From Alphaproteobacteria bacterium (GTDB lineage Bacteria; Pseudomonadota; Alphaproteobacteria; Rs-D84): DNA of 64,000 nt. The stretch is from the NCBI GenBank assembly GCA_017962125.1, contig JAGCVZ010000013.1, positions 18,509-82,508 on the forward strand. The letters are read 5' to 3'. The notes beneath the pieces were generated by a model that was not told the origin of the DNA, searched no databases, and saw only the letters and a list, made by a program, of their open reading frames with translations. Positions 13,898-17,069 of this stretch are shown one piece after another. A program made the position numbers and the translations under genes. How positions within the stretch are numbered: the first letter of the stretch is position 1; the number at the start of each line of letters is the position of its first letter.

Positions 13898-15540
13898 TGC
13901 AAAGATTTGATGTGATTGTTATCGGTGGTGGACACGCAGGGGTCGAAGCGGCCGCGGCCGCGGCACGACGGGGTGCGAAGACACTGTTGGTTACAATGCG
14001 TGAATCTGATTTGGGCGCAATGTCTTGTAACCCGTCGATTGGTGGGCCGGGCAAATCACAAATGGTTGCAGAAATAGATGCCTTTGCCGGCGTTATGCCG
14101 CGTGCCGCAGATATCGCAGGCATTCATTTTCGAACACTTAACGCATCACACGGTCCGGCAACACAGGCTTTGCGCGCCCAGATTGACCGCAAACTTTATC
14201 ATAACGCGGTGATGAAAATTTTGCAGAATCAAAAAAACTTGACGGTGCAATTCGAAAAAGTTGAATCCGTTGATTTGGAAAAGAAAATCATAAACGGTCT
14301 CTATACGGCGAAATCTGTCGTATTCACGACAGGAACTTTTTTGCGCGGGCTTGTTACAATGGGTGGCGATAAAATTCCATCTGGGCGAATTATGGATAAT
14401 GGAGAATATCAATCACCTGACACGATAATTTCCAGAGTGTTGCGCGATTTTGGATTTGACATAATTCGACTTAAAACAGGAACACCGGCACGAATTTATC
14501 GTGATTCTATCGACTTTTCTGTATGCGAAGAACAACTGCCGGACACGCCACACGATTGGTTTTCTGATGGTTGCGATGTGGATAACAATACGGCGGTTTG
14601 CTATATCACACACACAACAGGCGAAACACATGAAATCATTCGGCAAAATATAAAAAACGCGCCGATGTATAACGGCGATATAACCGGCATTGGGCCGCGG
14701 TATTGCCCATCAATCGAAGACAAAGTTATGCGGTTTCCGGAACATACTTCGCACCATGTGTTTTTGGAACCCGAAGGCTTGCACAGTGATTTAATTTATC
14801 CGAACGGAATTTCAACAAGTTTTGGTGCCGATATCCAAGATCAATGGATTCGTACGATTCCAGGTTTGGAAAATGCGCGCTTTGCACGATATGGATACGC
14901 GATTGAATATGATGCGATTGATGCGCGCGCGATTGACAAGCATTTAATGGCACGCAGCGCACCCGGATTATTCTTTGCCGGACAAATAAACGGAACATCA
15001 GGGTATGAAGAGGCCGCTGCCCAGGGCTTGGTTGCTGGTGCAAATGCCGCCGCGTTCGCGCTTGGTGCGCCGACACTCGACATTGACCGAACAAATTCGA
15101 TGATTGGTGTTATGGTTGACGACATAACAACCCTTGGTGTGGACGAGCCGTATCGTATGTTCACATCTCGATCAGAATATCGGTTGAACCTGCGTGCCGA
15201 TAATGCGATTGCGCGACTTGGGCAAATTGGTGTTGATTTGGGGCTTATCGATTTGCCGGCTTTTTTGAACAAAATGAACAAAAAAGCCGGGAAAATTTCC
15301 GAAAATGATAAATTCTATGCCGGCTATATTATGCGAAACAATCGGGAAATTGAATCGTATCGCCGCGATAAAGAGATAAAAATCCCGGCTGATTTTGACT
15401 ATGACAATATGCCGGGGCTGACACACGAACTTTGCGAAAAGTTGAAACGCGTGCGGCCGGCAAATATTGCAGAATTACAAAAAATCCCCGGCATGACCCC
15501 GGCGGGAATTATGGTGGTGCTGCGGAAGATAAAGTGTTAG
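13897..15540 (+). CDS. mnmG: tRNA uridine 5-carboxymethylaminomethyl modification enzyme MnmG (GidA), compact form
   Basis: FAD-binding VIVIGGGHAG, then CYITHT...GPRYCPSIEDKVMRF, GYAIEYD, GLFFAGQINGTSGYEEAAAQG and C-terminal IPGMTPAGI. At 547 aa it is shorter than the typical ~620 aa. Confidence 0.85.
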   Translation: MQRFDVIVIGGGHAGVEAAAAAARRGAKTLLVTMRESDLGAMSCNPSIGGPGKSQMVAEIDAFAGVMPRAADIAGIHFRTLNASHGPATQALRAQIDRKLYHNAVMKILQNQKNLTVQFEKVESVDLEKKIINGLYTAKSVVFTTGTFLRGLVTMGGDKIPSGRIMDNGEYQSPDTIISRVLRDFGFDIIRLKTGTPARIYRDSIDFSVCEEQLPDTPHDWFSDGCDVDNNTAVCYITHTTGETHEIIRQNIKNAPMYNGDITGIGPRYCPSIEDKVMRFPEHTSHHVFLEPEGLHSDLIYPNGISTSFGADIQDQWIRTIPGLENARFARYGYAIEYDAIDARAIDKHLMARSAPGLFFAGQINGTSGYEEAAAQGLVAGANAAAFALGAPTLDIDRTNSMIGVMVDDITTLGVDEPYRMFTSRSEYRLNLRADNAIARLGQIGVDLGLIDLPAFLNKMNKKAGKISENDKFYAGYIMRNNREIESYRRDKEIKIPADFDYDNMPGLTHELCEKLKRVRPANIAELQKIPGMTPAGIMVVLRKIKC

Positions 15541-15571
15541 TGGGGCGCGACTACTTTTTGACAAAACTGTG

Positions 15572-16747
15572 TTAATTATGTCCATTGTTTTTTTCTAATA
15601 ATTTCCATATACCTGTATGTTCTGGTTCTATATCCTGATTTTTAAATCGATTTACAGAGACTTCCAAAGAATGTGAATTTCGTAATGGATTATTATGTTC
15701 TTTTTTTAACATTTCGCCGTTAAGGATTGAAGTGGCAACAAACAGTTCTAAATCTGTTCCTTTTGCCACCTTTTTTAATAAATCCATAGCATCCGGAATT
15801 TCGTCATGATTATTATACCAATATTGTACAACCAACCGCATTAATTTCATTTGTTCCCGACCAACTTTGGTTAATTTCTTGAGGTCCGTTTCAAAAAAGG
15901 CTTCGTTGTGTTCTTTGCTGCTCCCCCTTATATCAGTTGACATTAAAATCTTATCAAATGCCATCATTATTTCATTTTCGTTTAATTTTATAAATGCAGA
16001 TTTCTTACCTTTGATTTTCGAAAATTCTGAATTTTCATCTAGATGAACAGGATAAGAATTAGAATATTTTTTATCATATGTTCTGTCAGATTGGCCATCG
16101 GCAACAGAGTATCGTTGTAGAATTGTAGTTGGTATATCTTCAGTCATTTCTAGTTGAGAATTATTAGAAATGCACAGAATTTGTTTTAATGCCGTATCTA
16201 TCAACTGTTGATTATATCCCAAGGTACGCATTTCTTGTTTAAGAATATTTAAAACCTCAATCATCACTGATGTGCCGTAACAATGGGTTACAATTAATAT
16301 GTTATGCATATTATTTAATAAATTTTTATCAGATATTTTATCCCAACCTGATTTTGTTTTCTTTGCAATAAATGGCATAAATACTTTCAATGTTTCTCGC
16401 ACAAAATCATTGTTATACAATTCGTCAATATTTGTTGCCATATGTAATGTAAAGAAAAAATCTTCGGGAATATCTTCGTAATTTGCTAACATTTGCATTT
16501 TATTTTGCTGTTCTTTTGTGAAATCAAGTGTCTTTACAAAAGAATTTATATTACCATTAGCTGCACGTGCGTTTCTTGTTCCATCGCCCCCGAAACAAAT
16601 TATTGTTTTCTTTTGTGAATCCAATATAAATTCGGTTGTCCAATGCTCATTATTCTCTGATGTCTTCATTCCTATACGAATAAACGAACAAAATTTCGGG
16701 TCAACCCATATTTTTCCATCTTGAATTGTATATGGCGTATTGGACAT
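15572..16747 (-). CDS. Hypothetical cassette protein (391 aa) inserted at the mnmG 3' end
   Basis: Long ORF convergent with mnmG. TTGTAA-N17-TGaTATAAT promoter on the minus strand at ~16760-16790. No family recognised. AT-rich codon usage. Confidence 0.6.
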   Translation of the reverse strand: MSNTPYTIQDGKIWVDPKFCSFIRIGMKTSENNEHWTTEFILDSQKKTIICFGGDGTRNARAANGNINSFVKTLDFTKEQQNKMQMLANYEDIPEDFFFTLHMATNIDELYNNDFVRETLKVFMPFIAKKTKSGWDKISDKNLLNNMHNILIVTHCYGTSVMIEVLNILKQEMRTLGYNQQLIDTALKQILCISNNSQLEMTEDIPTTILQRYSVADGQSDRTYDKKYSNSYPVHLDENSEFSKIKGKKSAFIKLNENEIMMAFDKILMSTDIRGSSKEHNEAFFETDLKKLTKVGREQMKLMRLVVQYWYNNHDEIPDAMDLLKKVAKGTDLELFVATSILNGEMLKKEHNNPLRNSHSLEVSVNRFKNQDIEPEHTGIWKLLEKNNGHN

Positions 16748-16770
16748 TTTTATACCTCTTAAGAGTAATT

Positions 16771-16852
16771 ATATCACAAAATTTGCAGAATTACAAAAAA
16801 TCCCCGGTATGACCCCGGCGGGAATTATGGTTATATTAAGAAAGATAAAATA
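16771..16852 (+). repeat. Second, diverged copy of the mnmG 3' end (last ~26 codons); att-like duplication
   Basis: Aligns with 15460-15540 and encodes AELQKIPGMTPAGIMVILRKIK* against AELQKIPGMTPAGIMVVLRKIKC* in the native copy. Changes are mostly synonymous (GGC to GGT, GTG to GTT, CTG to TTA, CGG to AGA). The GTGGTTAGTGG repeat follows. Confidence 0.85.
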
Positions 16853-16865
16853 AGTGGTTAGTGGT

Positions 16866-17069
16866 TTAGTTAGTAAATACTTCGGGTGGGGTTTTTGTGG
16901 GGCACGGATATTGAAACCTTTGGGCAAATTCATTTGCAAGATAATGCAGAACCATTACAAATTCCATAGGATTCATTTTGTATTTTGGGTTTCTTTTGAA
17001 AAAATACAATAAATTGCCATATAATGAATCTTTGGCCGATTCCCGCAACCAATCTTTTTCATGTGGCAT
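16866..17069 (-). CDS. Hypothetical small protein (67 aa)
   Basis: ATG preceded by AGAGG at good spacing. Confidence 0.4.
   Translation of the reverse strand: MPHEKDWLRESAKDSLYGNLLYFFKRNPKYKMNPMEFVMVLHYLANEFAQRFQYPCPTKTPPEVFTN

Follow-up and report, generated by a model that had tools for sequence, protein, structure and literature searches.

The 64-kb stretch of DNA analyzed here (the window) comes from a Candidatus Enterousia-type alphaproteobacterium of the order Rs-D84, an uncultured inhabitant of gut and rumen. Genomes of this type are ~0.75-1 Mb in size with ~90% coding density (PMC12306168), and the window represents ~7% of the genome. Within it, the gene mnmG (gidA) is followed by a convergent gene for a 391-amino-acid (aa) protein, the cargo gene, and then by a second copy of the mnmG 3' end, orf67, a structured RNA, and nth (Table 1). 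We call the tail that ends the intact mnmG copy A and the tail beyond the cargo gene copy B. Sequences used for comparison (related genomes, loci, and contigs) are labeled L001 through L114; L001 is a sister species.

The 3' end of mnmG is present on both sides of a cargo gene

The mnmG tail recurs beyond the cargo gene, as the initial annotation of this DNA had stated. The two copies make up direct repeat family D6, in which 15461-15533 and 16777-16849 are 86% identical over 73 nucleotides (nt) at a spacing of 1316. The recurrence stands as claimed and its boundaries shift slightly: true homology begins at TTGCAGAA (15467 and 16783), and the stop codon of copy B, a TAA at 16851-16853, lies one base later than had been implied. 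Pairwise alignment, the check proposed with the annotation, separated the copies into two parts. The first 49 nt are identical at 48/49 positions (blastn E=9e-22), and the last ~25 nt are strongly diverged. Copy A ends in the mnmG TAG at 15538-15540 (...MVVLRKIKC*), and copy B reads (F)AELQKIPGMTPAGIMVILRKIK*.

The two mnmG tails diverged as coding sequence in different lineages. Over 23 codons there are 10 nt differences that cause 2 amino-acid changes, with none at second codon positions, so the substitutions are indeed mostly synonymous, as first noticed. The P value for this coding-neutral divergence was 2e-4 (uniform) to 2e-3 (spectrum-preserving simulations). All of the substitutions from copy A to copy B run from GC to AT, and, counted by eye, ~8/11 G/C sites are changed in the last 25 nt versus 1/~24 in the first 49 nt.

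The repeat did not arise by duplication in place. If the mnmG tail had been duplicated in tandem in situ and the spare copy had then decayed neutrally, the repeats would lie close together, as they do, and AT-biased decay would give substitutions in the direction observed. However, the differences are coding-neutral and confined to the last 25 nt, the tail of copy B is that of a functional mnmG in another contig (L114, described below), and the cargo between the copies is foreign. L114 and the codon test refute this explanation, and we give it very little weight.

The architecture is also not an assembly artefact. Metagenome-assembled genomes (MAGs) can carry chimeric joins at repeats, and a faulty assembly or binning step could in principle have joined the mnmG ends of two strains. 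The probability of this is vanishingly small, because copy A, cargo, and copy B were recovered together in at least six independent assemblies (ENA, NCBI, and Logan; 99.3-100% nt identity; contigs of 2.6-87 kb). We conclude that the mnmG tail repeat is the footprint of an insertion, neither a repeat arisen by chance nor a neutral duplication in place.

Table 1. Features of the mnmG-nth interval and of the second tail duplication in the window.
Feature	Position	Strand	Remarks
mnmG (gidA)	13897..15540	+	547 aa, intact; Pfam GIDA 8.7e-144 and SAM_GIDA_C; 96% aa identity to L001
Copy A, proximal mnmG tail	15467..15540	+	15467-15515 common to copy B (48/49)
Replacement tail, distal copy A	15516-15540	+	GTG CTG CGG AAG ATA AAG TGT TAG; arrived with the cargo
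Post-stop segment TGGGGCGCGAC, 11 nt	15541..15551	+	common to L001; partial TAGTG motif and half of the L001 terminator stem
Cargo gene, 391 aa	15572..16747	-	convergent to mnmG; only gene of the insert
Cargo promoter (predicted)	16768..16796	-	TTGTAA-N17-TATAAT, upstream TG
Copy B, displaced mnmG tail	16783..16853	+	16813-16853 as in L114; 16783-16812 copy-A-like
TAGTG-type motif TAAGTGGTTAGTG, anchored at stop codon	16851..16863	+	
orf67, resident mnmG neighbor	16866..17069	-	adjoins mnmG tail in L114, L006, L010
Structured leader or small RNA 5' of orf67	17095..17312	-	resident flank; promoter 17312-17285, terminator 17129-17099
nth (endonuclease III)	17315..17965	-	convergent core gene closing the hotspot
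Second case: sspB tail, motif, and terminator (1254-1430), repeated at 2330-2547	1254..2547	+	219-aa cargo 1504-2163

The distal copy is the resident end of mnmG

The polarity first assigned to the two copies, with copy A native and copy B donor-like, is reversed. We found an empty allele by exact look-up of the orf67 protein. In this 805-nt contig (L114), mnmG is intact, ends ...PGITPAGIMVILRKIK, and is immediately followed by orf67; the C-terminus of the mnmG product is ...GIMVILRKIK. The last 41 nt of copy B match L114 at 41/41 positions, and the 423 nt of the window at 16854-17276, comprising orf67 and its leader, match at 422/423. L006 and L010 have, after the mnmG tail, the motif seen in the window, then orf67, and then a structured RNA that is conserved, an arrangement collinear with copy B and the sequence downstream from it. 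Because of the empty-site match to L114 and the collinearity with L006 and L010, we conclude that copy B is the resident tail and that the flank downstream from it is resident as well.

The end of copy A is of the L001/L002 type. Its distal part is 1 nt away from the tail of L002 and is separated from copy B and L114 by 8 substitutions and an extra TGT codon. The 11 nt after the stop of copy A are shared with L001. At mnmG, L001 and L002 themselves carry other cargo, a GNAT gene and a kinase-like gene. Judged from these alignments, the incoming DNA consists of the distal 25 nt of copy A, the 11 nt after the stop, and the cargo gene with its promoter.

Searches for the L114 lineage gave no longer sequence from which to map the left recombination breakpoint. 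A protein search with the C-terminus of the L114 mnmG product returned short diverged fragments only, and the copy-B tail, used as an exact pattern against JGI metagenomes, gave no match. The sliding identity of the window mnmG to L001-L010 had no clear discontinuity inside mnmG.

The cargo gene is joined to mnmG sequences at microhomologies

The cargo gene is not a mobility gene and is predicted to encode a protein with an alpha/beta-hydrolase fold. The protein has no family in Pfam, NCBIfam, or PADLOC. Its AlphaFold model (predicted local distance difference test score, pLDDT, 75.8; predicted template modeling score, pTM, 0.78) has distant fold matches, first to the hydrolase domain of Obc1 (E=1.8e-5) and then to esterases, and across the homologs H-C-x-G is invariant where a nucleophile would be expected. 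There are 15 other homologs, and those with a named source are from rumen alphaproteobacterial MAGs. A variant from the same species as the window (L095, 6358-6479) has a 114-nt in-frame insertion (429 aa vs 391 aa), and two more distant homologs are 436 aa.

The cargo belongs to a gene pool that is shuffled among a few hotspots. Its homologs in other species are found at one locus (gyrA-MerR-...-cargo-tRNA-Glu-GNAT-ABC-PBP-recR), and a homolog of the cargo that is next to sspB in the window (see below) sits at the same tRNA-Glu. The shared tRNA-Glu neighborhood places both genes in such a pool.

Both edges of the cargo look like illegitimate microhomology joints at arbitrary places within the cargo's own context. 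Similarity to the homolog in L087 (80% identical) starts ~43 nt 5' of the ATG and ends at the stop codon, and its start falls within an upstream element of ~110 nt that is conserved 5' of several cassette genes. The right joint is at AATTyTGCAA (~16781-16790), 71 nt 5' of the resident stop, where the mnmG tail and the sequence upstream of the cargo agree at 13/16 positions with TTGCA perfect. The left joint is at CGA(C) (15548-15551), where post-stop sequence of the L001 type and the cargo 3' untranslated region (as in L088) overlap by 3-4 nt. Taken as aligned, the joints lie at microhomologies.

The displaced copy B supplies part of the predicted cargo promoter. The promoter is sigma-70-like. 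Its TG-extended -10 box (16768-16776) is conserved with L087, and its -35 box, TTGTAA (16791-16796), is inside copy B, which agrees with the earlier claim that the promoter is built in part from the duplicated segment.

mnmG-nth and sspB-accC are hotspots of gene turnover

The mnmG-nth junction is a hotspot of accessory-gene swapping between two tightly packed convergent core genes. In L003, L004, L005, and L007, nth adjoins mnmG; in L001, L002, L006, L008, and L010 there is other content, and the gene order around the junction differs further out. Comparative genomics of this interval, which had been suggested as a check, showed variability and no repetition of the event: the tail duplication was present at 0/79 related mnmG loci scored (one more ended before the stop codon).

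The interval between sspB and accC behaves similarly. It is variable even among genomes with an identical SspB protein (L097-L106), being empty in L103 and L105 and holding elsewhere genes for Fic, helix-turn-helix (HTH), or hydrolase proteins or genes of 172 aa or 219+172 aa. There was no duplication at 9 other sspB loci. Most of the cargo turnover at the two hotspots leaves no duplication.

Tail duplications are present at other genes

The architecture at mnmG is also present at sspB, as the initial annotation had noticed, and it recurs at L071 queH and, with a tRNA in place of a protein gene, at tRNA-Met. At sspB, 1254-1372 is repeated at 2330-2448 (86%) and 1369-1430 is repeated at 2486-2547. 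The copies have 13 nt differences and 0 amino-acid changes, and 0/200,000 simulations were as coding-neutral (P<5e-6). A perfect block (54/54) lies between diverged flanks, and relatives differ there at 3-6 sites. The distal copy and the gene downstream match the arrangement in L097. The window sspB is 90-97% identical to the species complex L097-L106, and the adjacent recF is ~82% identical, versus 96-99% within the complex, with a sharp identity break between sspB and recF at ~position 900. From these identities, the window sspB looks to have been imported whole with its cargo, giving a recombination tract next to the hotspot.

A scan of 1.15 Mb for gene tails that recur, along the lines of the genome-wide scan proposed at the outset, yielded three clean cases: sspB, mnmG, and queH in L071. 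Further examples thus exist but are few; the remaining hits were paralog pairs and intergenic repeats. The distal copy of L071 queH has the genus-typical tail and the fabD ribosome-binding site as in L058 and L063, and after the proximal tail come a convergent cargo and a terminator that is new. Across the cases, the duplications measure 55, 73, and ~180-185 nt. A shared CAGAATTA at the starts of two of the B copies was judged coincidental; the queH homology begins ~13 nt earlier. Separately, tandem repeats of ~300 nt (77-78%) from the 3' end of ileS were seen in two species (L047, 11393-11998; L069, 12087-12688).

The tRNA-Met region of the window is the tRNA version of the tail-duplication architecture. 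The 20-nt 3' end of tRNA-Met (46352-46428, minus strand) recurs exactly at 46181 and 43596, around cargo genes. The region 3' of the tRNA (42850-46430, minus strand) has cargo open reading frames (ORFs) of 247 aa, 377 aa (S41-peptidase-like), and 187 aa (with a P-loop-like motif by eye), a 180-nt segment repeated at 99% (43593-43772 and 46178-46357), and other fragments ending in ...CAACCA between cargo genes. Just beyond the cassette region are two adjacent paralogous genes (46566-47120 and 47185-47748; 184 and 187 aa) with no Pfam family.

Recombination with DNA of a related lineage would account for the duplication

We favor, with a probability of roughly 55%, recombination with DNA of a related lineage that relied on homology within the conserved gene and on illegitimate joining at the edges of the cargo. 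This is homology-facilitated illegitimate recombination (HFIR), or 'C-terminal displacement', with no dedicated recombinase. DNA of a related lineage would enter the cell carrying an mnmG 3' end of the L001/L002 type, 11 nt of the terminator region, and the promoter-bearing hydrolase-like gene. On the mnmG side, homologous exchange would take place in the 49-nt block, the most conserved part of the tail, or further upstream. The cargo would be joined to mnmG-locus sequence illegitimately, at CGA(C) after the stop codon and at AATTyTGCAA in the resident tail. As a result, mnmG now ends in the imported tail of copy A, and copy B has been pushed 1316 nt downstream, still ahead of orf67, the leader RNA, and nth. 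The features of HFIR found here are donor-type anchor sequence beside the insert, joints at microhomologies, and a displaced resident 3' fragment in its native context (the last also at L071 queH). We infer RecA-type homologous recombination and illegitimate end joining as the enzymology, and likewise the sequence of events, in one step or two, and the way in which the DNA came in.

There is no need for a mechanism targeting gene 3' ends, for which the initial annotation had argued. The edges are idiosyncratic microhomologies, there is no shared core, no recombinase was found among the screened ORFs, and most turnover occurs without duplication. The apparent targeting may instead be survivorship. 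A joint in the tail of the anchor gene would keep that gene and its downstream signals, and a joint elsewhere would destroy a neighbor; because of the ~90% coding density, only joints sparing both neighbors would be expected to persist.

We found no recombinase among the ORFs examined and no common recombination core. The screen covered 46 ORFs, which make up most of the long ones in the 64 kb (about a dozen of those listed at >=100 aa fell outside it), and detected neither an integrase nor a transposase domain; the gene tables of ~30 related loci had none either. The mnmG and sspB tails have no significant similarity to the tRNA-like element found upstream of cassette genes, to tRNA-Glu, or to tRNA-Met (the queH tail was compared by eye), and no core is common to the three target tails. 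The possibility that the mnmG tail is a pseudo-att site resembling the tRNA-like element of the cassettes was rejected; only the junction microhomology stood out (z=2.4).

Several observations weigh against recombination with related-lineage DNA as we have described it. Over its first 30 nt, copy B resembles copy A and has 5 differences from L114, and the body of the L114 mnmG is 85% identical to that of the window. Either L114 acquired its divergent mnmG body independently or there were two steps to the event. A single 805-nt contig is the source of the empty allele, and the left joint was placed with diverged homologs (L001 and L088), so that its 3-4 nt overlap is approximate. Near-perfect blocks within diverged repeats (48/49 at mnmG; 54/54 at sspB) are what an att core or Campbell integration would predict, and HFIR alone would need added gene conversion or a second homologous exchange to produce them. 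The screen for recombinases covered part of a window that is itself a small fraction of the genome, and one could be encoded elsewhere. DNA uptake is presumed; the genes seen that might serve it are those for a pilus and for VirB3/VirB4. Finally, there are 2 scars in the 64-kb window versus 1 in ~1.1 Mb of other genomes, an uneven frequency that hints at something specific to the lineage.

Together, the identity blocks, the 5' part of copy B, and the body of the L114 mnmG require extra gene conversion, a two-step history, or a separate import into L114. In a two-step variant of the mechanism we favor, a duplicative insertion would have occurred in an L001-like lineage and would then have been passed on by homologous transfer, the right-hand crossover falling within copy B.

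Some genes in the window might serve to export effectors or to exchange DNA. Those for a type IV pilus (PilB/PilC-like, 53025-55720) belong to a type IV pilus- or type II secretion system-like cluster at 51081-55720 (plus strand) with a PilO-like protein, a PilB-type ATPase, and a PilC-type platform protein. VirB4- and VirB3-like type IV secretion genes are at 36215-38991 (minus strand).

Mobilization by a recombinase or by a RecA-formed circle is less consistent with the data

A small integrative cassette, mobilized in trans by a tyrosine or serine recombinase, could give the same architecture. Its attP would carry a surrogate mnmG 3' end, and after crossover in the identical block copy A and copy B would be attL and attR. 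Elements integrated at gene 3' ends leave just such direct repeats, an intact gene whose surrogate tail is synonymous, and the old tail displaced. The identity blocks at mnmG and sspB, the 20-nt end of tRNA-Met present three times around cargo genes, and the conserved elements that precede cassette genes in L087, L091, and L092 and begin by matching the tRNA-Glu 3' end over 13 nt also fit. Against these stand the failure to find a recombinase domain in the screened window ORFs or the ~30 related loci, and the three protein-gene targets and tRNA-like element that have no core in common. In addition, the conserved upstream element of the cargo was cut at a microhomology and not used as a site, and the event was repeated at none of the 79 mnmG loci and none of the 9 other sspB loci. 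We consider this explanation unlikely, with a small but real chance of being right.

Host RecA might also act alone. Exchange between copies A and B would excise a 1316-bp circle containing one tail and the cargo, and Campbell re-insertion into the mnmG tail of another cell would regenerate the duplication. The prediction is an identical crossover block with chimeric copies, A being resident at its 5' side and donor at its 3' side and B the opposite. Copy B is copy-A-like over its first 30 nt and L114-like over its last 41, and the sspB copies have a 54-nt perfect core between diverged flanks. The identity available, however, is 25+23 nt at mnmG and 29 nt at queH, and such lengths are at or below the minimum for efficient RecA exchange. 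The first junction of the circle, between promoter and tail, would still need an illegitimate joint. Furthermore, all of sspB is of the foreign type, not just the part 3' of the core, and the body of the window mnmG is 15% different from that of L114. A RecA-formed circle is improbable.

A broader proposal is that Enterousia genomes shuffle cassettes without an element-borne integrase. Genes would carry surrogate 3' ends of host genes (tRNA-Glu, tRNA-Met, sspB, mnmG, and queH) as portable attachment sites for trans-acting or host recombination on identical cores, and single accessory genes, many of which share a conserved promoter/operator element, would move among a few hotspots. We regard this proposal as doubtful.

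Three standard kinds of mobile DNA do not fit. Integron cassettes come with intI, attI, and attC sites with RYYYAAC and GTTRRRY cores. Here, no integrase was found in the screened ORFs, the boundaries are copies of gene tails, and GTTAGTG matches only GTTAG by eye, usually without an inverse partner. For a transposon or insertion sequence, no transposase was found with Pfam, no inverted repeats were seen at the cargo ends by reading (no inverted-repeat search was run), and the duplications are of unequal length. An integrase-borne element would account for the 3'-end direct repeats and the surrogate tail; no recombinase gene was found in the screened ORFs, no common core among the targets, and no reuse of the site at the 79 mnmG loci scored.

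Comparison with known systems

Primary papers on HFIR include de Vries & Wackernagel 2002, Prudhomme et al. 2002, and Meier & Wackernagel 2003. HFIR has been documented during natural transformation in Acinetobacter, S. pneumoniae, and P. stutzeri and during E. coli conjugation (PMC3240628). As at mnmG, one end recombines by homology within a gene that is conserved, a short microhomology joins the foreign part, and the process is rarer than homologous replacement. In contrast, the mnmG case is a natural footprint, known here from sequence, in core housekeeping genes of a reduced-genome bacterium. The illegitimate joint at mnmG also lies inside the anchor gene and leads to a duplication, not a deletion.

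HFIR has been proposed for C-terminal displacement and orphan 3' modules in Rhs, contact-dependent inhibition (CDI), and type VI secretion system (T6SS) loci (PMC5361080, citing Jackson et al. 2009 and Poole et al. 2011). There too, a new 3' end comes in with extra genes and the old end is shifted downstream as an orphan; arrays arise by repetition. The new tip at those loci is a new toxin, whereas the mnmG tails encode the same peptide of a tRNA-modification enzyme and the cargo is unrelated.

Elements with a surrogate tail at a gene 3' end include phage 21 and e14 in icd, ICESt1/3 and integrase-less cis-mobilizable elements (CIMEs) in fda, and SGI1 in trmE/mnmE. They resemble the mnmG insert in having direct repeats of a gene 3' end, a mostly synonymous element-borne copy, and a displaced pseudo-tail at the far end. 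Unlike them, the mnmG insert is 1.3 kb with one ordinary gene, no integrase was found, its microhomology edges run through the cargo's own regulatory element, and there is no core.

Integration hotspots between core genes are reportedly kept by homologous recombination in their flanks (Oliveira, Touchon & Rocha 2017). The mnmG/nth and sspB/accC intervals similarly hold different accessory genes in close relatives, and sspB is in a recombination tract. Turnover at such hotspots normally leaves no duplicated tail, in contrast to the scars described here, which are rare imperfect outcomes.

The mnmG case is a combination of known things: the logic of surrogate tails, that of displaced 3' ends, and the dynamics of core-gene hotspots. 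What distinguishes it are the housekeeping targets, the synonymous old and new tails, the single ordinary cargo genes, and the reduced genome.

Stop-codon motifs, a structured RNA, and shared upstream elements

The motif that follows copy B is common in the lineage. GTGGTTAGTG is directly 3' of copy B (16854-16863), where the initial annotation had placed it, but it is not a mark of the insertion. Arrays of TAGTG or TAAGTG (e.g., TAGTGGTTAGTGTAAGTGGTTAGTG) begin exactly at the stop codon of many genes, usually with a terminator hairpin after them, and place stops in all three frames. There were 45 TAGTG-type arrays in 1.15 Mb, of which 30/45 were at an ORF stop. The window has 13 matches to the motif versus 2.5 expected, and arrays at 1369-1393, 2486-2510, 3195-3220 (minus strand), 6848-6857, 16851-16863, and 35566-35583 (minus strand); others are in L002, L005, L006, L009, L010, L019, and L097-L106. 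Arrays of at least three units were seen only in the rumen clade closest to the window and at none of the places where convergent genes abut directly. We ruled out a terminal inverted repeat or attC as the identity of the GTGGTTAGTG array, as it starts at the stops of conserved genes (e.g., mreB in several species) and is usually unpaired.

Small GC-rich palindromic inserts lie in or before some TAGTG arrays. Examples are CCGTCACGACCGCGGCGCGGTGTGCCGCGACGG, a ~75-nt sequence TCCGCCTTCG...GGCTTGG, and GTCCGTCTCCGCAAAGCGGAGACGAGAC, and they are found at 2448-2485 of the window, after the sspB stop in L098, L101, and L104, and after queH in L002, L003, and L008. These inserts may be miniature repeat elements.

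The RNA 5' of orf67 is a candidate for a new leader, riboswitch, or small RNA, as predicted by comparison. It is ~190 nt, is common to L006, L010, and partly L009, and has no Rfam match. Its consensus fold has 52 pairs, 11 of them with compensatory changes (three sequences only). An Rfam scan of 15400-17500 found no family, and one of the whole window found 4 tRNAs only.

Unrelated cassette genes share upstream elements of ~90-110 nt. These are at 43474-43566, 45006-45113, and 45975-46067 in the window, at 3443-3529, 4867-4960, 6288-6379, and 7215-7306 in L087, and 5' of the cargo in L091 and L092. One type has a palindrome, AAAAAGTTCGAAAG...TTTGAACTTTTT, that overlaps the promoter. Elements of the other type open with ~13 nt similar to the tRNA-Glu 3' end (z 3-5), and their likeness to tRNA is limited to those ~13 nt and the flank. 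The shared elements suggest that genes of the cassette pool are regulated in common or stem from a common source.

Implications for gene acquisition in reduced genomes

At mnmG one can read with unusual clarity how, in nature, a bacterium whose genome is <1 Mb and ~90% coding gains genes without wrecking their neighbors; a spare end for the host gene arrives with the incoming DNA, and the old gene end is left as a dated fossil. The donor type, the resident type, and the junctions can be reconstructed to the nucleotide from the empty allele and related genomes, which is rare for natural illegitimate recombination. Short pseudo-tails 3' of core genes can mark recent acquisition in MAGs. The hotspots at mnmG/nth, sspB/accC, tRNA-Glu, and tRNA-Met, with their shuffled pool of genes (hydrolase, peptidases, Fic, kinase, and GNAT), are places to seek functions in host interaction. 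If the cassettes are actively mobilized, they would represent a new gene-capture system, and cassette shuffling, if true, would amount to integron-like gene capture on the tails of host genes in genomes of <1 Mb.

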